DNA from: a virus
Lineage: Duplodnaviria; Heunggongvirae; Uroviricota; Caudoviricetes
DNA: 8,410 nucleotides
Virus record (IMG/VR): IMGVR_UViG_2690316318_000015
Strand: one strand, 5' to 3'
Of the stretch, positions 1 through 8,410 are shown in pieces. Position numbers and translations under genes: made by a program. The notes under the pieces were generated by a model. That model searched no databases. It was not told where the DNA came from and saw only the letters and a program-made list of their open reading frames with translations. Position 1 is the first letter of the stretch, and each line of letters starts with the position of its first letter.

Positions 1-458
1 GTGTCCGCCCCATAAACATTCATCGAAAACATTTGAACAATATGACCACTTGGTAACTGAAACCAGTTTTTAAAAAAAAAAAATGCAGACAGGGAATATA
101 AACCTTCACGGGAATCATAATCAGTCGTCATATAGTTAGACGTATTATCAGAAACAGTTTCTGTCGGTCTGGTAACCAGACGATAAGAGCCAGTGGTTGG
201 TGATCTGACCAGACCAAAACTTTCAACCAGAGTGGCTTTTTGAAAGCTTAATAATCCCCGACCACTGTCAGCTCCACGCCCGTCATCCCAGCCACGAATA
301 AACTCACCGCGTAAATCAGGTAATTTATTTGTTGGATAAGCCTTTGCCAGTTCCGGGTATTCTTCAGCAGAAAATGCCGCACCGTTGCATTTCAGCCAGC
401 CTGTTGGCGGTGTGACTGAAGGCCATGGAACAGGCACACCAACAGGTAATGCAGAGCC
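1..458 (-). CDS. Tail-fibre variable C-terminal segment (Sv1), silent copy next to pin copy 1; 3' end runs off the window start
   Basis: Minus-strand translation from the crossover site reads ...[66 protein letters not shown]...FGLVRSPTTGSYRLV...KNWFQLPSGHIVQMFSMNVYGADT, resembling remembered Mu S / P1 S / e14 Stf variable parts. A fortuitous ATG in the pin-upstream region (about 510-512) is in frame. No stop within the window. Confidence 0.55.
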
Positions 459-484
459 TTCTCCCAAACCAACGTTTATGAAAA
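459..484. other. pix-type recombination crossover site, copy 1 (TTCTCCCAAACCAACGTTTATGAAAA), 50 bp upstream of pin copy 1
   Basis: 26-bp imperfect dyad (half-sites TTCTCCCAAACC and TTTTCATAAACG around a central AA) in the position and form expected for Hin/Gin/Cin/Pin sites. The left half continues into a tail-fibre variable segment, the right half into the pin leader. Confidence 0.7.
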
Positions 485-533
485 TGCAGAAATAACGGCT
501 AACTGGCATCATCTCTGGTTTTTATTCAGAGGG

Positions 534-1094
534 ATGATCATGCTTATTGGCTATGTACGCGTGTCAACAAATGACCAGAACACCGATTTGCAACGTAATG
601 CACTGAACTGCGCGGGATGTGAGCGGATTTTTGAGGATAAAATCAGTGGAACTAAGTCCGACAGACCAGGACTGAAAAAACTGCTCAGGACATTATTGGC
701 AGGTGACACGCTGGTGGTCTGGAAACTGGACCGACTGGGGCGCAGTATGCGGCATCTTGTCGTGCTGGTGGAGGAGTTGCGCGAACGAGGCATTAACTTT
801 CGTAGTCTGACGGATTCAATTGATACCAGTACCCCAATGGGGCGCTTTTTTTTTCATGTGATGGGTGCCCTGGCTGAAATGGAGCGTGAACTGATTGTTG
901 AACGAACAAAAGCTGGACTGGAAGCTGCTCGCGCACAGGGACGAATTGGTGGACGTCGTCCCAAACTTACACCAGAACAATGGGAACAGGCCGGACGATT
1001 AATTGCATCAGGAGTTCCTCGCCAGAAGGTGGCGATCATCTATGATGTTGGTGTGTCAACTTTGTATAAGATGTTTCCTGCAGGGGATAAATAA
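534..1094 (+). CDS. pin: Serine-recombinase DNA invertase Pin (Hin/Gin/Cin/Pin family), copy 1
   Basis: 186-aa ORF; MLIGYVRVSTNDQ (catalytic Ser region), LVVWKLDRLGRS, GINFRSLTDSIDTSTPMGRFFFHVMGALAEMERELIVERT and a C-terminal helix-turn-helix are family hallmarks. GAGGG lies 5-9 nt before the second ATG (540), so the true start may be there (184 aa). Confidence 0.92.
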   Translation: MIMLIGYVRVSTNDQNTDLQRNALNCAGCERIFEDKISGTKSDRPGLKKLLRTLLAGDTLVVWKLDRLGRSMRHLVVLVEELRERGINFRSLTDSIDTSTPMGRFFFHVMGALAEMERELIVERTKAGLEAARAQGRIGGRRPKLTPEQWEQAGRLIASGVPRQKVAIIYDVGVSTLYKMFPAGDK

Positions 1095-1200
1095 AGTTAA
1101 AGTCACTTTGTGTACAAAAGAAAATAAAACAACAGCAACTTGTTGCAATTTTATCAATAAAAGTAGTATTGTCGTAAAAAATTGATTAAAGATTAATATT

Positions 1201-1576
1201 ATGCATGTTTTTGATAATAATGGAATTGAACTGAAAGCTGAGTGTTTGATAGGTGAAGAGGATGGTGTTTATGGTCTAATCCTTGAGTCGTGGGGGCCGG
1301 GTGACAGAAACAAAGATTACAATATCGCTCTTGATTATATCATTGAACGGTTGGTTGATTCTGGTGTATCCCAAGTCGTAGTATATCTGGCGTCATCATC
1401 AGTCAGAAAACATATGCATTCTTTGGATGAAAGAAAAATCCATCCTGGTGAATATTTTACTTTGATTGGTAATAGCCCCCGCGATATACGCTTGAAGATG
1501 TGTGGTTATCAGGCTTATTTTAGTCGTACGGGGAGAAAGGAAATTCCTTCCGGCAATAGAACGAAACGAATATTGA
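1201..1576 (+). pseudogene. mcrA: mcrA 5' fragment (first ~125 codons), then the ORF reads through antisense tail-fibre sequence to a stop at 1623
   Basis: First 125 residues identical to the full-length 277-aa ORF at 3649..4482; identity ends abruptly at 1576/1577. The remaining 15 codons are antisense of the tail-fibre segment. Confidence 0.85.
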
Positions 1577-2133
1577 CTGACCAGACCAAAACTTTCAACC
1601 AGAGTGGCTTTTTGAAAGCTTAATAATCCCCGACCACTGTCAGCTCCACGCCCGTCATCCCAGCCACGAATAAACTCACCGCGTAAATCAGGTAATTTAT
1701 TTGTTGGATAAGCCTTTGCCAGTTCCGGGTATTCTTCAGCAGAAAATGCCGCACCGTTGCATTTCAGCCAGCCTGTTGGCGGTGTGACTGAAGGCCATGG
1801 AACAGGCACACCAACAGGTAATGCAGAGCCTTCTCCCAAACCAAGGTTTTCGAGAGCCGTTTTCACCGTGCCATCCGATTTGATATCGCCAAACGGATTC
1901 TTGCGGCTTAACAGCAGCGCACGAAGCGCGGTAAGCAGCTGGTCATGCCGCCCCTTCTCCAGGCTGGCACCGGATGCCTCCACCACGCTGCAGAGTTCTT
2001 CCTGCAACATGTCAAAGTAGTCATCATCCAGATCGGTGGCAGGTGTGCCGGTCTGGGGGTTACCACGGGTAAAACCGTTCTTACCCGCGCCGAACTTATC
2101 CTTCTGCGCGGTTTTCGTGTCTATACGATGCAT
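1399..2133 (-). CDS. Chimeric tail-fibre ORF: constant N-terminal part (2133..1857) joined across a pix site to the first ~84 codons of variable segment Sv1 (1856..1577), then antisense-mcrA read-through (1576..1399)
   Basis: N-terminus [46 protein letters not shown]... is the start I associate with e14 StfP-type tail fibres. The crossover site encodes ...ALENLGLGE, followed by [51 protein letters not shown]. Homology to the Sv1 copy at 205..458 stops at 1577. Confidence 0.6.
1831..1856. other. pix-type crossover site, copy 3 (TTCTCCCAAACCAAGGTTTTCGAGAG), inside the tail-fibre reading frame
   Basis: Shares the TTCTCCCAAACCAA half with sites 1 and 2 in the same orientation; the other half continues into the tail-fibre constant part. 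Confidence 0.65.
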
Positions 2134-2136
2134 GGA

Positions 2137-2320
2137 TTACTCCGGATATTTAAAAATTACGTAGGTATGCGAAGGGCAGAGTTTGTTAAGCACACACTCG
2201 ACAACGGTGTCGCCCCAGATACGCAGTGCGGAATCACAGGGATCGCCACATGTCATCCAGGTGGTGTTGGTGGCGGCTGGCATGTTGACCTGCCAGTAAT
2301 ACCGCCATTCCGGCGCATTC
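2137..2320 (-). other. Possible 3' end of the phage tail gene upstream of the tail-fibre gene; very uncertain
   Basis: Minus-strand frame ...[61 protein letters not shown] ends one codon before the tail-fibre ATG. No recognisable motif; called from position only. Confidence 0.25.
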
Positions 2321-2569
2321 ACATCTTTCTGATTCTGCCTGTTGAATAAGTTCTTCATGTGATGGTTGAGGTATTTCAGCCCATGTGGGAAAACCATTTA
2401 CCCCTGCAACTCGGATTTTCCCTTGTGGCGGTTCCGCCATATATTTTACAGAAATGTTATCAGGAATATCTAATGCATCAGCGGGCCATGTTCCATTTAC
2501 TTCATAAGTATTTTTTAAATTAACAGCATAAAATGCATTTTCCGAAGGGGAATAAATATATTGATTCAT
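2234..2569 (-). pseudogene. Tail-fibre assembly chaperone (Tfa) gene, N-terminal ~82 codons only (2569..2324); the rest of the ORF is unrelated sequence
   Basis: AGGAAG Shine-Dalgarno then ATG directly after the Sv2 stop. Residues 60-81 (...[23 protein letters not shown]) resemble the conserved mid-region of P2 G / Mu U / lambda Tfa; the next 29 codons do not look Tfa-like. Confidence 0.5.
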
Positions 2570-2570
2570 A

Positions 2571-2960
2571 TTATCTTCCTATTGCGATAATCATAGTTCC
2601 ATACAAACCATTTCCGGTTGATACTTTTAAGGTTACTGATGTCCTTGTTGTCGTGTACCCCATAAGTTTAAAGGTCGGAGCAGCCGTTAATGTGCCATCA
2701 GACCATAAGGCACTAACAGCAAGTGCACCTGAAGGAAATGCAATAGGGAAATTACCAGTAGTTCCGTTAGTGTCCGCCCCATAAACATTCATCGAAAACA
2801 TTTGAACAATATGACCACTTGGTAACTGAAACCAGTTTTTGCCAGATGGAAATGCAGACATATCTGGTATCTGATTTTCTCCTGTTCCCACATTCCGTTT
2901 TGCCGCTTCTCCCAAACCAACGTTTATGAAAATGCAGAAATAACGGCTAACTGGCATCAT
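2571..2960 (-). CDS. Tail-fibre variable C-terminal segment Sv2, silent copy next to pin copy 2 (variable part 2571..2906; leader 2933..2960 comes from the pin-upstream region)
   Basis: Translation MMPVSRYFCIFINVGLGE-AAKRNVGTGENQIPDMSAFPSGKNWFQLPSGHIVQMFSMNVYGADTNGTTGNFPIAFPSGALAVSALWSDGTLTAAPTFKLMGYTTTRTSVTLKVSTGNGLYGTMIIAIGR; the C-terminus is typical of Mu/P1/e14 tail-fibre tips. Shares about 30 residues with the Sv1 copy at 1..91. Confidence 0.65.
   Translation of the reverse strand: MMPVSRYFCIFINVGLGEAAKRNVGTGENQIPDMSAFPSGKNWFQLPSGHIVQMFSMNVYGADTNGTTGNFPIAFPSGALAVSALWSDGTLTAAPTFKLMGYTTTRTSVTLKVSTGNGLYGTMIIAIGR
2907..2932. other. pix-type crossover site, copy 2 (TTCTCCCAAACCAACGTTTATGAAAA), 50 bp upstream of pin copy 2
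   Basis: Identical to site 1 and in the same orientation. Confidence 0.7.
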
Positions 2961-2981
2961 CTCTGGTTTTTATTCAGAGGG

Positions 2982-3542
2982 ATGATCATGCTTATTGGCT
3001 ATGTACGCGTGTCAACAAATGACCAGAACACCGATTTGCAACGTAATGCACTGAACTGCGCGGGATGTGAGCGGATTTTTGAGGATAAAATCAGTGGAAC
3101 TAAGTCCGACAGACCAGGACTGAAAAAACTGCTCAGGACATTATTGGCAGGTGACACGCTGGTGGTCTGGAAACTGGACCGACTGGGGCGCAGTATGCGG
3201 CATCTTGTCGTGCTGGTGGAGGAGTTGCGCGAACGAGGCATTAACTTTCGTAGTCTGACGGATTCAATTGATACCAGTACCCCAATGGGGCGCTTTTTTT
3301 TTCATGTGATGGGTGCCCTGGCTGAAATGGAGCGTGAACTGATTGTTGAACGAACAAAAGCTGGACTGGAAGCTGCTCGCGCACAGGGACGAATTGGTGG
3401 ACGTCGTCCCAAACTTACACCAGAACAATGGGAACAGGCCGGACGATTAATTGCATCAGGAGTTCCTCGCCAGAAGGTGGCGATCATCTATGATGTTGGT
3501 GTGTCAACTTTGTATAAGATGTTTCCTGCAGGGGATAAATAA
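2982..3542 (+). CDS. pin: Serine-recombinase DNA invertase Pin, copy 2 (identical protein to copy 1)
   Basis: Same 186-aa translation as 534..1094; sits in the canonical position between a tail-fibre variable segment and mcrA. Confidence 0.92.
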   Translation: MIMLIGYVRVSTNDQNTDLQRNALNCAGCERIFEDKISGTKSDRPGLKKLLRTLLAGDTLVVWKLDRLGRSMRHLVVLVEELRERGINFRSLTDSIDTSTPMGRFFFHVMGALAEMERELIVERTKAGLEAARAQGRIGGRRPKLTPEQWEQAGRLIASGVPRQKVAIIYDVGVSTLYKMFPAGDK

Positions 3543-3648
3543 AGTTAAAGTCACTTTGTGTACAAAAGAAAATAAAACAACAGCAACTTGTTGCAATTTT
3601 ATCAATAAAAGTAGTATTGTCGTAAAAAATTGATTAAAGATTAATATT

Positions 3649-4482
3649 ATGCATGTTTTTGATAATAATGGAATTGAACTGAAAGCTGAGTGTTTGATAG
3701 GTGAAGAGGATGGTGTTTATGGTCTAATCCTTGAGTCGTGGGGGCCGGGTGACAGAAACAAAGATTACAATATCGCTCTTGATTATATCATTGAACGGTT
3801 GGTTGATTCTGGTGTATCCCAAGTCGTAGTATATCTGGCGTCATCATCAGTCAGAAAACATATGCATTCTTTGGATGAAAGAAAAATCCATCCTGGTGAA
3901 TATTTTACTTTGATTGGTAATAGCCCCCGCGATATACGCTTGAAGATGTGTGGTTATCAGGCTTATTTTAGTCGTACGGGGAGAAAGGAAATTCCTTCCG
4001 GCAATAGAACGAAACGAATATTGATAAATGTTCCAGGTATTTATAGTGACAGTTTTTGGGTGTCTATAATACGTGGAGAACTATCAGAGCTTTCTCAGCC
4101 TACAGATGATGAATCGCTTCTGAATATGAGGGTTAGTAAATTAATTAAGAAAACGTTGAGTCAGCCCGAGGGCTCCAGGAAACCAGTTGAGGTAGAAAGA
4201 CTACAAAAAGTTTATGTCCGAGATCCGATGGTAAAAGCTTGGATTTTACAGCAAAGTAAAGGTATATGTGAAAACTGTGGTAAAAATGCTCCGTTTTATT
4301 TAAATGATGGAAGCCCATACTTGGAAGTGCATCATGTAATTCCCCTGTCTTCAGGTGGTGCTGATACAACAGATAACTGTGTTGCCCTTTGTCCGAATTG
4401 TCATAGAGAATTGCACTATAGTAAAAATGCAAAAGAACTAATCGAGATGCTTTACGTTAATATAAACCGATTACAGAAATAA
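3649..4482 (+). CDS. mcrA: McrA, methylcytosine-directed type IV restriction endonuclease (HNH nuclease), full length
   Basis: 277 aa, the length of E. coli K-12 McrA, and the N-terminus matches my recollection of it. C-terminal HNH motif CENCGKNAPFYLNDGSPYLEVHHVIPLSSGGADTTDNCVALCPNCHRELH. AT-rich relative to pin, sits next to pin as in e14. Confidence 0.9.
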   Translation: MHVFDNNGIELKAECLIGEEDGVYGLILESWGPGDRNKDYNIALDYIIERLVDSGVSQVVVYLASSSVRKHMHSLDERKIHPGEYFTLIGNSPRDIRLKMCGYQAYFSRTGRKEIPSGNRTKRILINVPGIYSDSFWVSIIRGELSELSQPTDDESLLNMRVSKLIKKTLSQPEGSRKPVEVERLQKVYVRDPMVKAWILQQSKGICENCGKNAPFYLNDGSPYLEVHHVIPLSSGGADTTDNCVALCPNCHRELHYSKNAKELIEMLYVNINRLQK

Positions 4483-4715
4483 AATTGTTTATTAAAGTCA
4501 CATTTAAGACGTAATACCCTACAGGGTAAAAATTTTCTCTGATCTTAACTTCTGCAAATGTTAACTGCTATTTTTATGCTAAAAATGGTTATCAAAACTC
4601 AAAAACACATGTTTATAATCAATGAGTTATAGAAATGCTAAGGGCTAATGAGTTATATGCAAATTAGTAAAATTATGTTGCTATCTCAAATAGTTACGAT
4701 TTAGTCATCTAACTA

Positions 4716-4829
4716 ATGCTGCGCCATATGGGTTGGACTGAAGCAGCTGACCTGATTGTTAAAGGTATGGAAGGCGCTAAACTGCTGAAATGTTCAGAGT
4801 TTGGTGATGCGATCATCGAAAATATGTAA
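4716..4829 (+). pseudogene. icd: Displaced 3' end of icd (icdC-like fragment) marking the prophage/chromosome junction
   Basis: Translation [37 protein letters not shown] matches the remembered C-terminus of E. coli Icd. No upstream icd sequence; followed by a hairpin terminator. Confidence 0.75.
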
Positions 4830-4852
4830 TTACCACATGTGTTAAATATTAT

Positions 4853-4880
4853 AACGGGCGTATAACACGCCCGTTGTTTT
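4853..4880 (+). terminator. Rho-independent terminator (icd terminator)
   Basis: 9-bp perfect stem AACGGGCGT / ACGCCCGTT, 5-nt loop, then GTTTT; 24 nt after the icd-fragment stop. Confidence 0.6.
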
Positions 4881-4962
4881 ATGATGATGTAAAATCTTCC
4901 CCAAAACTTCCCCAAAACTGGCTATTTTCTATGCTGTTTTGATATCTACGATAACCCGGTAT

Positions 4963-5895
4963 TTACAGAGTTTCCTCAAAGAATGGAGCTAATACTGAAA
5001 TCGCTTCAGCCACATAGGCTTTGCCGTCATAGAGGTCCATATGGTTAGCGCCTTCAACAATGTGATAGCGTTTATCCTGACTTGATGCTCGATCGTACAG
5101 GTCGTCACTCATCCATTTACTTCCTGCCAGACTGCCCGCCACAATCTGCATCGGCTGAGTCAGGTACACTTCCGCCATATGGTAAGCATCATAGGTAATC
5201 ATCTGGTTAAGGCTGCGCAAAGTAGCGTAACCCGGTGCTGTTGGATACTGCGCGCGAGAGGTGTGGTAATACTCCCAGGCCTGACGCAGTTCTTCGTTCG
5301 GCGCATCGGACTCTTTCATTGGCGCCAGTGGCATAATGGCGTATTCTCCGCTGCTAATATCGCTGGTTCGGGCGTTTGAACCCGCTTCAATGTGTGGCAG
5401 AGCATCAATAGATTTCACATTGTTTTCCCAACCATTGCGGAACATCGAACCAATATTGACCGCACTAACGGTGCCGATAGCCTTGATGCGGCGATCCTGA
5501 ATTGCAGCATTGGCTGTATATCCTGCACCAGCACAAATTCCCATCGCACCAATTCGGGCATTGTCGACATAAGAAAGTGTTGTCAGGTAATCAATTACGG
5601 CACTGACGTCTTCAGTACGAATGTATGGGTTTTCTAACTGACGCGGCTCGCCGCCGCTTTCACCTTGATAAGATGCGTCATAAGCAATAGTGACAAATCC
5701 CTTTTCCGCCAGTTTTTCGGCATAGGTTCCGGCCGTTTGCTCTTTAACGCCCCCACCAGGGTGAGATACCACAATTGCCGGATACTGACGGGTTTCATCA
5801 AATTGGGGAGGGAAATAGATCACAGCAGACAAAGAGATGGTTGGATTATTGCTGTTAGTGAAGCTGACTTTATTATTCATCATTCTGTTCCTCAT
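4963..5895 (-). CDS. Alpha/beta-fold hydrolase (dienelactone-hydrolase / S9-peptidase-like) with a likely Cys nucleophile
   Basis: 310-aa ORF; probable start at the second ATG (about 5883, 306 aa) which has an AGGA Shine-Dalgarno. VVSHPGGG oxyanion-type motif and nucleophile elbow GAMGICAGAGY (G-x-C-x-G), with a downstream EGANHMD His motif. Size and pairing with a 299-aa LysR gene recall K-12 ycjY/pgrR, but I cannot confirm that from memory. Confidence 0.8.
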   Translation of the reverse strand: MRNRMMNNKVSFTNSNNPTISLSAVIYFPPQFDETRQYPAIVVSHPGGGVKEQTAGTYAEKLAEKGFVTIAYDASYQGESGGEPRQLENPYIRTEDVSAVIDYLTTLSYVDNARIGAMGICAGAGYTANAAIQDRRIKAIGTVSAVNIGSMFRNGWENNVKSIDALPHIEAGSNARTSDISSGEYAIMPLAPMKESDAPNEELRQAWEYYHTSRAQYPTAPGYATLRSLNQMITYDAYHMAEVYLTQPMQIVAGSLAGSKWMSDDLYDRASSQDKRYHIVEGANHMDLYDGKAYVAEAISVLAPFFEETL

Positions 5896-5982
5896 GGCGT
5901 TGCCGGTTCGTTTTAACGGCTGGTGATATCACTATAGATATTGATCATTAAGTTGATTAGACCCAAAATCATGATTGGACCT

Positions 5983-5996
5983 ATCATTTAAATGAT
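5983..5996. promoter_or_regulatory. Perfect 14-bp palindrome ATCATTTAAATGAT in the divergent hydrolase/LysR intergenic region; candidate LysR-type regulator binding site
   Basis: Self-complementary and AT-rich, about 25 bp upstream of the LysR start, in the position where LysR regulators usually bind their own divergent promoter. Confidence 0.35.
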
Positions 5997-6020
5997 TAAT
6001 AGATTGTATAGAGATACTGA

Positions 6021-6919
6021 ATGAAGCGTGAAGAAATCGCTGATCTGATGGCATTCGTCGTCGTTGCAGAGGAGCGTAGCTTCACTCGCGCAGCAGTCCG
6101 CTTGGGCATGGCGCAGTCAGCTTTAAGCCAGATAGTGCGTCGTATAGAAGAACGATTGGGATTGCGGCTCCTGACGCGAACCACGCGTAGCGTTGTGCCA
6201 ACTGAAGCGGGCGAACATCTTTTATCTGTTCTTGGCCCGATGTTGCATGACATAGATTCAGCCCTGTCATCCCTGAGTGAGCTGCAGAATCGCCCATCCG
6301 GGACAATACGTATTACTACAGTAGAACATGCAGCAAAGACGATACTGCTACCAGCCATGCGCACATTCCTGAAATCGCATCCTGAAATTGATATTCAGCT
6401 TACCATTGATTATGGTTTGACCGATGTCGTTTCTGAACGTTTTGATGCAGGTGTCCGTCTGGGAGGGGAGGTGGATAAAGATATGATTGCCATTCGAATC
6501 GGGCCTGATATACCAATGGCTATTGTTGGCTCACCGGATTATTTTTCCCGCCGAAGCGTTCCAACGTCAGTGTCACAATTAATAGACCATCAGGCCATTA
6601 ATTTGTATCTTCCCACATCGGGTACAGCGAATCGCTGGCGATTAATACGTGGTGGACGTGAGGTTCGTGTTCGCATGGAAGGTCAGCTTTTACTGAATAC
6701 GATAGATCTGATCATTGATGCTGCAATTGATGGGCACGGATTAGCGTATCTACCTCATGATCAGGTTGAGCGGGCGATTAAAGAAAAAAACTGATACGTG
6801 TTCTGGATAAATTCACACCAGACTTACCCGGTTATCACCTGTACTATCCACACCGTCGGCATGCTGGCTCGGCATTCTCCTTATTTATAGATAGGCTGAA
6901 GTATAAAGGCGCTGTTTAG
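6021..6919 (+). pseudogene. LysR-family transcriptional regulator, interrupted by a +1 frameshift in an A7 run (6784..6790); intact length would be 299 aa
   Basis: N-terminal HTH (ERSFTRAAVRLGMAQSALSQIVRRIEERLGLRLLTRTTRSVVPTEAG) and co-inducer-domain layout. The ORF stops at 6794, but the +1 frame continues LIRVLDKFTPDLPGYHLYYPHRRHAGSAFSLFIDRLKYKGAV* to 6919, which is a typical LysR C-terminus. Confidence 0.75.
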
Positions 6920-7504
6920 TTTTGCTTGATGATACGTTGATTTCATTTTTCCCTTAACGTGTTCACAGTTCCTTTCGACGTTTTAGTTATTTTTTCTTCT
7001 TCATACAATGGCGGCAATTACTTTCTTTTATTTTTATTATCGTGGATGTTAATACCAGAACTTCTGACCCTACGATGCATGTTTTTTGTATATTATCTGT
7101 ATCAGGCAAAGAGTGGCGCAAATTGTGGATGGTGGGGGAGTATAACCCGGAAGAGTTTACATTTTTGAACGGTATTTTTTGTAATGTAAAGGAAAATCTG
7201 TGTCGGAATGATCGCTATTTGGGTGCAGATGGCAGAAGGAGTGGGGAAATAAATAATAATTCTACGATGATATTATTTGGTTGTATCGGTTAGTGATGAA
7301 CTCAGGTCGCCAGATGCTGCACTATCTCCGGCGTGGATGATGCTTTCAGTCTCAGACTTACTGACATCGCTCAATGGGATTCTTTCGTCCTCAGTGAGCG
7401 CATCGAAACCATAACTAACCAATTGAATAGCCTGCAAGAGTATGTGAGATCACAGTGTTCATATTAGAAAAGTCTTATCATAAGATTTTTTATATGGATG
7501 CATT

Positions 7505-7891
7505 ATGTCTCAATACGCTCGTGCCGCTTTAATTGCTTATAATTTGGTTGCCGATAAATCAATGTCTCCTCGTGAGGCTTGGGACGCCGCTGTTGCTAAG
7601 GTTACAAAAAGCGAATCCTCAAGAAAGAAGGGATGCCCAAGGGCAACGTTTCTCGCCTTGGCGGATTGCGGTTATCTGAAGAATGTAGAACCACAGTATG
7701 GGGAGAAAAAAGGCGGTAAGTTGTACCAAAGGGCGGTTGAAGTTGCGAATCTGATTCTTGATTTACCCGGAATTAGCAAAGCTGAGTTAGTTGATAAAAC
7801 TTGCTATAAAGACGGGCAAGGGTCTTATGACATTGTGCTAACACTCGCTCAGTGCGGATTTCTCCAACGCCCTCAGCAAGATATTAAGTGA
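7505..7891 (+). CDS. Hypothetical protein, 128 aa, no family recognised
   Basis: Clean ORF with even codon usage, followed 8 nt later by a hairpin and T-tract. Two related Cys-containing motifs (FLALADCGYL and LTLAQCGFL) about 65 residues apart suggest an internal duplication. No clear Shine-Dalgarno. Confidence 0.5.
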   Translation: MSQYARAALIAYNLVADKSMSPREAWDAAVAKVTKSESSRKKGCPRATFLALADCGYLKNVEPQYGEKKGGKLYQRAVEVANLILDLPGISKAELVDKTCYKDGQGSYDIVLTLAQCGFLQRPQQDIK

Positions 7892-7898
7892 TTTATGG

Positions 7899-7921
7899 CC
7901 TCGCTGTTAGCGGGGTTTTTT
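7899..7921 (+). terminator. Rho-independent terminator after the 128-aa ORF
   Basis: 6-bp stem CCTCGC / GCGGGG (one G-U pair), loop TGTTA, then TTTTTT. Confidence 0.5.
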
Positions 7922-7930
7922 CATATCTGA

Positions 7931-8062
7931 ATCTCACCACCGGATGCACTGACTGGCTTCGTGGCTGTTTTCAACAGTGAGGAGGCATCGTGGCATCTCG
8001 TTGAAGACCCGCGGGGTAAGACTGTCAGTGGCGTGGCTTCAGGTAATGCGCTATCCCTTTAA
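7931..8062 (+). pseudogene. Remnant of a lambda-type tail-fibre assembly gene (tfa), internal ~43 codons only
   Basis: Frame reads [43 protein letters not shown], close to the remembered lambda Tfa mid-region (...[39 protein letters not shown]...). No start codon and the C-terminal half is missing. Confidence 0.65.
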
Positions 8063-8064
8063 AA

Positions 8065-8081
8065 GGGAGGTTATACCTCCC
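8065..8081. terminator. Hairpin GGGAGG-TTATA-CCTCCC containing the acetyltransferase stop codon; possible bidirectional terminator
   Basis: Perfect 6-bp GC-rich stem flanked by AAAA upstream and TTTCTTT downstream on the + strand. Confidence 0.45.
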
Positions 8082-8320
8082 TTTCTTTGCAAACGTTAAC
8101 TTTCTTAGTATAGCAAATCGAATTTGAGGGTATATCCTTATTTACAAATGTAAAAGCACCAATTTTTACATTATCACCTATAGTAATGTTATCTGCGATA
8201 ATACAGGAGTTCGCTCCAATATTTACATTGTCACCAATGCTAATTCTATTAGTATTGTTGTTTTTTAAGCCAATTGTTGTGTTTTGCCTTATATTGAAGT
8301 TTCTACCAATTGTGGCATAT
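8071..8320 (-). pseudogene. Hexapeptide-repeat (left-handed beta-helix) acetyltransferase, 3' fragment of ~83 codons, 5' end removed by the IS insertion
   Basis: Minus-strand translation YATIGRNFNIRQNTTIGLKNNNTNRISIGDNVNIGANSCIIADNITIGDNVKIGAFTFVNKDIPSNSICYTKKVNVCKEREV* has the [LIV]-G-x-x-x-x periodicity and a typical C-terminus. Very AT-rich. No start codon; the frame ends at the IS junction. Confidence 0.65.
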
Positions 8321-8410
8321 TGATCCTACCCATGTAATATGGACACAAGCCTAAGCGAGGTTCTGATTTTCAAATTGTTCCGGACTGAGACCGCCACACC
8401 AACTGTGCCG
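8321..8410 (-). mobile_element. Right end of an IS3-family element (terminal inverted repeat plus the last codons of transposase orfB); the rest lies beyond the window
   Basis: Reverse complement ...CAGTTGGTGTGGCGGTCTCAGTCCGGAACAATTTGAAAATCAGAACCTCGCTTAGGCTTGTGTCCATATTACATGGGTAGGATCA closely matches the remembered right end of IS3 (a few mismatches). Terminal TGATC...; minus-strand frame ends ...SWCGGLSPEQFENQNLA* with stop at 8351..8353. Confidence 0.7.

Follow-up and report, generated by a model that had tools for sequence, protein, structure and literature searches.

Three direct pix sites in an Escherichia albertii draft contig are best explained by mis-scaffolding of an e14-type Pin tail-fibre switch

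We analysed an 8,410-nucleotide DNA window from Escherichia albertii, in which a prophage integrated in icd very probably carries, at its right end, an ordinary e14-type Pin invertible tail-fibre switch that has been mis-scaffolded. In canonical order, the parts would be ymfQ, the constant tail-fibre part Sc, pix, the variable end Sv1 with tfa1 in the same direction, tfa2 and Sv2 in the opposite direction, an inverted pix, pin, mcrA and icd'. Pin, a serine invertase, would recombine the two inverted 26-bp pix sites at the central AA, and inversion would join Sc, ending in ...ENLGLGE, in frame either to Sv1 and tfa1 or to Sv2 and tfa2. The layout with three direct sites would have been made by the draft assembly, in which 1576 and 2323 are single-N gaps between joined pieces, and the piece between them probably received a wrong position and a wrong orientation. 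A mixture of isomers may have confused scaffolding and gap extension, producing duplicated stretches. An active e14-type switch would be expected in E. albertii and is already known in kind; the three-direct-site arrangement is not a biological state.

As the window reads, the motif TTCTCCCAAACCAA occurs at 459-472, 1831-1844 and 2907-2920, always on the + strand and never on the - strand; at least three matches were found in 0 of 200 shuffles (expected, 0.08). The pix sites are 26 bp long and consist of two imperfect inverted 12-bp half-sites around a 2-bp AA core, a layout likened to those of hix and gix. They comprise an Sv1/pin-type site at 459..484 (+; TTCTCCCAAACC AA CGTTTATGAAAA), an Sv1/Sc-type site at 1831..1856 (+; TTCTCCCAAACC AA GGTTTTCGAGAG), which encodes ...ENLGLGE on the - strand, and an Sv2/pin-type site at 2907..2932 (+; TTCTCCCAAACC AA CGTTTATGAAAA). 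Reverse-complemented, the right half-sites read TTTTCATAAACG (from CGTTTATGAAAA) and CTCTCGAAAACC (from GGTTTTCGAGAG). Exact repeats link 458-1576 to 2906-4024 (1119 bp, comprising pix and pin as well as ~375 nt from the start of mcrA), 205-472 to 1577-1844 (268 bp; the first ~85 Sv1 codons and a pix half-site) and 1-71 to 2770-2840. A 244-aa ORF at 1399-2133 (-) consists of Sc and ~85 Sv1 codons, followed by antisense mcrA. The initial annotation had named the parts correctly, i.e., a Pin-family switch with a constant part and two variable ends, and it had read the window accurately: our recount gave the same three direct sites and no inverted one, Sc is fused to the first ~85 Sv1 codons, and silent Sv1 and Sv2 ends each lie beside one of two identical pin copies.

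The window corresponds, over its full 8410 bp, to one complete public record, CYCK01000069.1, from the E. albertii assembly GCA_001286085.1. The strain's read set is probably ERR137811; a Logan contig of that set (L028) is 100% identical to 4788-8346, IS3 junction included. The two matched over 8410/8410 bases, and the only differences were at 1576 and 2323, where 'N' in the record reads 'A' in the window. Therefore, the "contig" is a three-piece scaffold (1-1575, 1577-2322 and 2324-8410); Sv1 only looks truncated and tfa2 only looks fused to ymfQ, since at both places there is a gap instead of a sequenced junction. Colinearity with relatives, mapped onto the genomes L007 and L002, is broken exactly at these two positions. 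At the first gap (J1, 1576..1576, no strand), the first 375 nt of mcrA (1201..1575, +; a duplicate of 3649-4023) stop; in L007, the flanks lie in mcrA at 10375 and in Sv1 at ~7679 on the opposite strand. At the second gap (J2, 2323..2323, no strand), the last ~62 codons of ymfQ (2137..2322, -), a Mu Gp48-like baseplate gene, stop, and the flanks correspond to ymfQ at 6933 and tfa2 at 8676 of L007. At 1576|1577 and at 2322|2324, the junction sequences contain nothing resembling pix and the flanks share no homology; Pin could therefore not have made the mcrA|Sv1 and ymfQ|tfa2 junctions. In exact-product look-ups, none of the 244-aa, 140-aa and 111-aa chimeric ORFs was on record; since the true products have X at the N codon, this outcome says nothing about whether independent assemblies contain J1 and J2. 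Presumably, no reads run across 1576 and 2323, and a scaffolder or gap-filler probably made the joins. As described for a common Illumina assembly-improvement pipeline, read-pair joins are written as N gaps, and SSPACE and GapFiller are greedy and capable of false joins (PMC5320598).

In all 13 relatives with the element (13/13), two copies of TTCTCCCAAACCAA were found, one per strand and 1848 bp apart; among the element-carrying records compared, three + strand motifs occurred only in the window's own record. The third pix site is an assembly duplicate. Both isomers were observed in these relatives: Sc-Sv2 of 212 aa (state A) in L002, L003, L006, L010 and L013, and Sc-Sv1 of 260 aa (state B) in L004, L005, L007, L008, L009 and L021. 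The two proteins share Sc through ...ENLGLGE, apart from one K/N difference (L002 vs L007), and then diverge, so that the constant part is in frame with either variable end. The pin gene is always on the strand of Sc, and McrA is identical across relatives of both isomers. Features of the Din (Hin/Gin/Cin/Pin) serine-invertase class are present, namely a recombinase with Resolvase and HTH domains, 26-bp dyad sites with a 2-bp core, two inverted sites around a variable segment (in 13/13 relatives) and both isomers. The class is also characterised by a Fis-dependent recombinational enhancer in the 5' part of the invertase gene; Fis sites are very degenerate, and a sequence scan for them would carry little meaning. 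Nothing but the two N gaps fixes which way round the middle piece lies; therefore, the direct sites of the window do not contradict the inverted-site feature. It had been proposed that the window represents a real non-canonical state in which Pin has no invertible substrate and a truncated chimera is the only fibre. This proposal is not supported, since the junctions that create such a state are both N gaps and the canonical inverted pair occurs in every element-carrying relative.

Taken alone, each of the three pieces reproduces a canonical junction that close relatives have in the same prophage (identity, 99.3-100%). Piece I is Sv1-pix-pin. Its Sv1 part (92..458, -; Pfam Collar), a silent copy beside pin, corresponds by translation to about codons 99-217 of the 260-aa Sc-Sv1 protein and is colinear with L002 from 8892 on (state A, 99.3%) and, in reverse, with L007 7791-7406 (99.5%). 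The pin copy (540..1094, +; Resolvase and HTH_7) is 100% identical to 2988-3542. The stretch 458-1576 maps to L007 9258-10376 (100%), and 92-1576 is colinear with the opposite isomer at L002 8892-10376 (99.3%). Piece II is the reverse complement of ymfQ-Sc-pix-Sv1; 1574-2322 maps in reverse to L007 7682-6933 (99.6%). It contains Sc (1857..2133, -), assigned from the ORF and its translation with ATG at 2133, and, downstream of Sc, the first ~85 codons of Sv1 (1577..1830, -), assigned from the repeat and from colinearity with L007. Piece III is tfa2-Sv2-pix-pin-mcrA, and 2324-8320 maps to L007 8676-14673 (99.95%). It begins with the first ~82 codons of tfa2 (2324..2569, -), a tail-fibre assembly gene encoding 147 aa in relatives (ORF, relatives' mapping and Pfam), followed by Sv2 (2571..2906, -; Gp53-like C-terminal type), silent beside pin as in state B. 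The pin gene (2988..3542, +) encodes a serine invertase of 184 aa with the Pfam domains Resolvase (1.9e-51, residues 3-135) and HTH_7 (4.1e-14, residues 138-181); annotated pinE of E. coli matches it at 95-97%. Full-length mcrA (3649..4482, +) encodes an HNH endonuclease of 277 aa (ORF, relatives' gene tables and Pfam). Pfam assigned the Sv ends to tail-fibre domains (Collar and Gp53-like_C) and the tfa genes to Caudo_TAP.

If the arrangement were real, the P region would be a partial tandem duplication or a shufflon-like intermediate in which pix occurs three times in direct orientation, pin is present twice and a truncated Sc-Sv1 is the sole expressed fibre. This would agree with the continuity of the window as given and its repeat period of 2448 bp. 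In addition, the record's gene table gives the same contig in 4 samples; however, these may be copies of one deposited assembly, not independent data. Against this reading, both junctions that it requires are N in the record, neither is of a kind that Pin makes, and neither occurs in any relative or in any complete E. coli genome; moreover, the duplicated stretches are 100% identical. We consider it highly improbable. Tandem duplication by microhomology was rejected, as the flanks overlap at neither 1576|1577 nor 2322|2324. Among 5426 complete E. coli genomes, not one (0/5426) had a single locus covering at least 80% of either 1-4700 or 1500-3000. E. coli 2012C-4221 (73% cover) was considered as support for the ymfQ/tfa2 junction and discarded; its cover is the sum of two pieces regardless of order, and mapping showed the canonical order Sc-pix-Sv2-tfa2. 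There is also very little probability that a genuine rearrangement in a subpopulation, with a pix-pin-mcrA' duplication and three direct pix sites, lies behind the window and that the N's are unresolved junctions rather than false joins. If so, the substrate of Pin would be set up for deletion, not inversion.

Mis-scaffolding of pieces from both isomers accounts better for the window. Sv1-pix-pin, Sc-pix-Sv1 and Sv2-pix-pin are all present, which is not compatible with one single-copy chromosome in one orientation. Because Sv1-pix-pin in piece I and Sv2-pix-pin in piece III exclude each other and yet come with 100% identical pin-mcrA stretches, both inversion isomers were most likely in the sequenced DNA, i.e., Pin would have been active in culture. 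Two explanations had been offered in the initial annotation; of these, the mixed-isomer assembly is supported, whereas the shufflon-like duplication intermediate is not supported, given the N-gap junctions and the two inverted sites in every element-carrying relative. Alternatively, a scaffolder may have merged two e14-like right ends, each fixed in a different orientation and stemming either from two prophages or from a segmental duplication, with no heterogeneity in the population. Sv1-pix-pin and Sv2-pix-pin are each present without N, and several relatives carry a second prophage adjoining icd, with integrase genes after icd' in L005, L006, L008 and L010. Nevertheless, no base differs between the pin-mcrA stretches (1119 bp) or between the Sv1 stretches (268 bp), relatives have one copy at icd, and a single type of Sc junction (Sc-Sv1) was assembled; such a two-copy origin is very unlikely.

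The start of the contig, 1-91, is a further chimeric patch. This fragment (-) derives from Sv2 and equals 2770-2860, except that positions 72-83 are an A12 run in place of GCCAGATGGAAA, in register, and it meets Sv1 at 91|92 (junction J0) with no N there. The junction was found in none of the 5426 complete E. coli genomes and was not colinear in any fetched relative. Only ~15 nt are shared at 91|92, whereas a mistaken jump by overlap-based extension typically needs a longer match. Since this junction is chimeric without an N, sequence written as contiguous in the record may be chimeric too, and the case that Sv1-pix-pin of piece I comes from real reads is slightly weaker. The case serves mainly as a caution: public draft "contigs" can be scaffolds, and single-N gaps vanish once N is recoded as a base. 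With both orientations in culture, invertible switches are at particular risk of being joined falsely and of having gap extensions duplicated.

The closest known system is the P (Pin) region of e14, a defective prophage in icd of E. coli K-12 (stfP-tfaP-tfaE-stfE-pinE-mcrA). The relatives share with it the order ymfQ, Sc-Sv, two opposed tfa genes, silent Sv, pin, mcrA and icd', as well as integration in icd, a serine invertase and 26-bp sites with a central AA. K-12-type genomes with annotated pinE and mcrA show ~95% DNA identity, whereas the host here is E. albertii; the layout of the window differs from that of e14 only because of scaffolding. Gin (Mu G segment), Cin (P1 C segment) and Hin (Salmonella H segment) are resolvase-family serine invertases that act on two inverted 26-bp sites of imperfect dyad symmetry, and Mu and P1 have alternative tail-fibre C-termini with matched assembly genes. 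Pin has the same domain architecture, as confirmed by Pfam; here, however, the fibre varies between Collar and Gp53-like_C domains. Shufflons (R64 Rci, sfx sites) likewise rearrange C-terminal ends of surface proteins through several recombination sites. They use a tyrosine recombinase and many sites (more than two), whereas the recombinase here is of the serine type and the relatives have two sites. As in e14, pin and mcrA are at the right end, followed by a 3' fragment of icd at 4716..4829 (+), the duplication of the right attachment site, which matches the icd 3' end of L012-L019; a 54-aa Iso_dh fragment is listed in the gene tables of relatives. The host flank comes after this fragment, and relatives without the prophage (L012, L014-L016, L018, L019 and L022-L026) have intact icd with the same flank directly after it.

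The window carries an e14-type Pin switch, of a kind that is already known. Pin (184 aa) carries Resolvase and HTH_7 domains, the alternative tail-fibre ends carry a Collar domain (Sv1) and a Gp53-like C-terminal domain (Sv2), and a dedicated Caudo_TAP assembly gene lies behind each end (tfa1 and tfa2, respectively); YmfQ resembles Mu Gp48, and McrA belongs to the HNH nucleases (all Pfam assignments). In Hin and Gin systems, two inverted sites are cut at a central dinucleotide by the invertase, and the segment between them is inverted. Here, inversion of the segment would swap the Sv–tfa pair that is expressed from the promoter and start codon of the constant tail-fibre part (Sc). The element belongs to the Pin/Gin/Cin/Hin invertase family, specifically with the e14 P region, and works in the same way. 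The shufflon analogy of the initial annotation does not apply to it, as the recombinase is of the serine type and the relatives have only two sites.

Relatives were gathered by exact look-up of the McrA of the window and the flanking DUF6979 protein; this yielded numerous contigs in which the prophage likewise sits at icd. Their order was invariant: ymfQ, Sc–Sv and tfa face forward, a second tfa and Sv oppose them, and pin, mcrA and the duplicated icd 3' fragment at the attachment site (icd') follow, with pin always on the strand of Sc. In state A (loci L002, L003, L006, L010 and L013), Sc–Sv2 (212 aa) and a 147-aa tfa product are opposed by a 200-aa tfa product and Sv1 (177 aa); in state B (loci L004, L005, L007, L008, L009 and L021), Sc–Sv1 (260 aa) and the 200-aa tfa product are opposed by the 147-aa tfa product and Sv2 (128 aa). 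Sc–Sv1 and Sc–Sv2 have the constant part in common up to and including ...ENLGLGE, the residues that the crossover site (pix) encodes, and diverge beyond it; the constant parts of L002 and L007 differ by only one K/N residue. Each of the 13 relatives with the element had two pix motifs and no more, one on either strand, at a spacing of 1848 bp.

Some of the related loci differ in content around the switch. A 257-aa GIY-YIG (LEM-3-like) nuclease gene lies on the opposite strand in the usual mcrA slot beside pin in L020 (5749-6522), and in a further locus at icd, L017 (5703-6476), the same gene has an integrase and a remnant of pin as neighbours; this looks like a nuclease cargo swap at the prophage end. 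In L003, a 190-aa phage portal-domain product (6546-7118) ends at the usual ymfQ end, directly upstream of the tail-fibre gene, and head genes replace baseplate genes upstream of the switch, suggesting that the prophage either lost a large internal segment or is a recombinant, with the switch kept.

A motif scan of the window found TTCTCCCAAACCAA at 459, 1831 and 2907, every copy on the + strand, with no further match when up to two mismatches were allowed; chance predicts 0.08 matches, and three were reached in 0/200 shuffles. The 26-bp site next to pin reads TTCTCCCAAACC-AA-CGTTTATGAAAA, and the one next to Sc reads TTCTCCCAAACC-AA-GGTTTTCGAGAG. Exact repeats join 458-1576 to 2906-4024 (1119 bp, spanning pix and pin and reaching ~375 nt into mcrA), 205-472 to 1577-1844 (a pix half-site and the first ~85 Sv1 codons) and 1-71 to 2770-2840. 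An ORF at 1399-2133(-) comprises Sc and ~85 Sv1 codons and continues into antisense mcrA. The motif scan, exact repeats and ORF calls show that the initial annotation described the sequence accurately.

The arrangement depends on two junctions. At J1 (1576|1577), mcrA nt ~375 abuts codon ~85 of the oppositely oriented Sv1, and at J2 (2322|2324), the last 62 ymfQ codons abut the first 82 tfa2 codons. Pix-like sequence and microhomology were looked for, and neither was present at J1 or J2; Pin cannot make these junctions. The public record of the window (CYCK01000069.1, L027) was reached through look-up of its frameshifted LysR protein; this NCBI record, part of assembly GCA_001286085.1, has a length of 8410 bp and so spans the entire window. 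Compared base by base, the two differ at 1576 and 2323 only, where the record has 'N' and the window has 'A', and these positions coincide exactly with J1 and J2. Because they are N, the record is a scaffold of three pieces (I, 1-1575; II, 1577-2322; III, 2324-8410), and the order and orientation of the pieces relative to each other are without contiguous-sequence support. Exact-product look-up of the chimeric ORFs returned 'not on record' because the real products contain X. Recoding N as a base conceals scaffold gaps from anyone reading the sequence alone and gives rise to ORFs that look like fusions.

Window 1-4700, or 1500-3000, was covered at ≥80% in one place in 0/5426 complete E. coli genomes. 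E. coli 2012C-4221 (73% match) was considered as a carrier of the window order and rejected; it has the canonical ymfQ-Sc-pix-Sv2-tfa2, of which window 1830-2925 is a circular permutation.

Window 2324-8320 (tfa2', Sv2, pix, pin, mcrA and host flank; state B right junction) matches L007 8676-14673 on the same strand at 99.95%, and 1574-2322 (ymfQ', Sc, pix and Sv1'; state B left junction, flipped) matches L007 7682-6933, reversed, at 99.6%. Window 458-1576 (pix, pin and mcrA') is 100% identical to L007 9258-10376, and 92-1576 (Sv1, pix, pin and mcrA'; state A right junction) is 99.3% identical to L002 8892-10376. The window is piecewise colinear with L007 and L002 and is thus stitched together from three pieces with canonical junctions that derive from both isomers. 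Flipping piece II brings back the canonical layout, with a gap of ~1 kb relative to L007 (~7683-8675), where the remaining Sv1, tfa1 and the 3' part of tfa2 would lie. The non-canonical state proposed initially is not a real feature, given N at J1 and J2 and two inverted sites in 13/13 relatives; a genuine duplication with direct sites behind the scaffold is highly improbable.

Piece I holds Sv1-pix-pin and piece III holds Sv2-pix-pin, with pin-mcrA 100% identical between them. No chromosome with one copy of the element can carry both arrangements, and it is therefore most likely that both orientations were present in the sequenced DNA. The alternative, two identical copies of the element, is considered very unlikely.

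Window 1-91 is Sv2 sequence equal to 2770-2860 apart from a 12-base A run (72-83), which replaces GCCAGATGGAAA of Sv2 in register. At 91|92, the Sv2 fragment is joined in frame to Sv1 (...EGLYS|LSAFFFFKNWFQ...). This junction was absent from all relatives and all complete E. coli genomes compared, and the public record shows no N at this point; the patch and its join are probably an assembly or gap-fill chimera. In a widely used Illumina assembly-improvement pipeline, joins from read pairs are written as N gaps, into which gap filling then extends; both tools are greedy, and false joins are possible (PMC5320598). As a general principle, N-gap joining with gap filling accounts for the perfectly identical duplicates beside both N gaps of the record, and the pipeline behind GCA_001286085.1 may differ.

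The host is Escherichia albertii, on the basis of the description of GCA_001286085 (PMC8715443), a window flank ~95% identical to E. coli and the NleG context in relatives. Window 8321-8410 is the terminal part of an IS3-family element (93-97% identity to transposase regions annotated as IS3-family in E. coli), which breaks a hexapeptide-repeat transferase gene (79 aa vs 180 aa in relatives); the last base of the contig falls within this element, and a Logan contig from ERR137811 (L028) ends at the identical junction. The LysR/pgrR-like gene (6021-6794) has lost one base of an A run at 6783 (A7 vs A8 in L007), which truncates the regulator to 257 aa vs 299 aa. Records of the 257-aa product comprise 10 contigs, drawn from several independent runs and including prophage-free strains; the truncation is accordingly a true trait of the lineage and no sequencing error. 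Finally, ~44 bases just past the duplicated icd 3' fragment (window ~4767-4774) are missing in the window and L007 and present in most relatives (L002, L004, L012 and others). The alignment pieces at this break overlap by 8 bases; the pattern suggests that a small segment was deleted between short direct repeats in the attachment-site scar.
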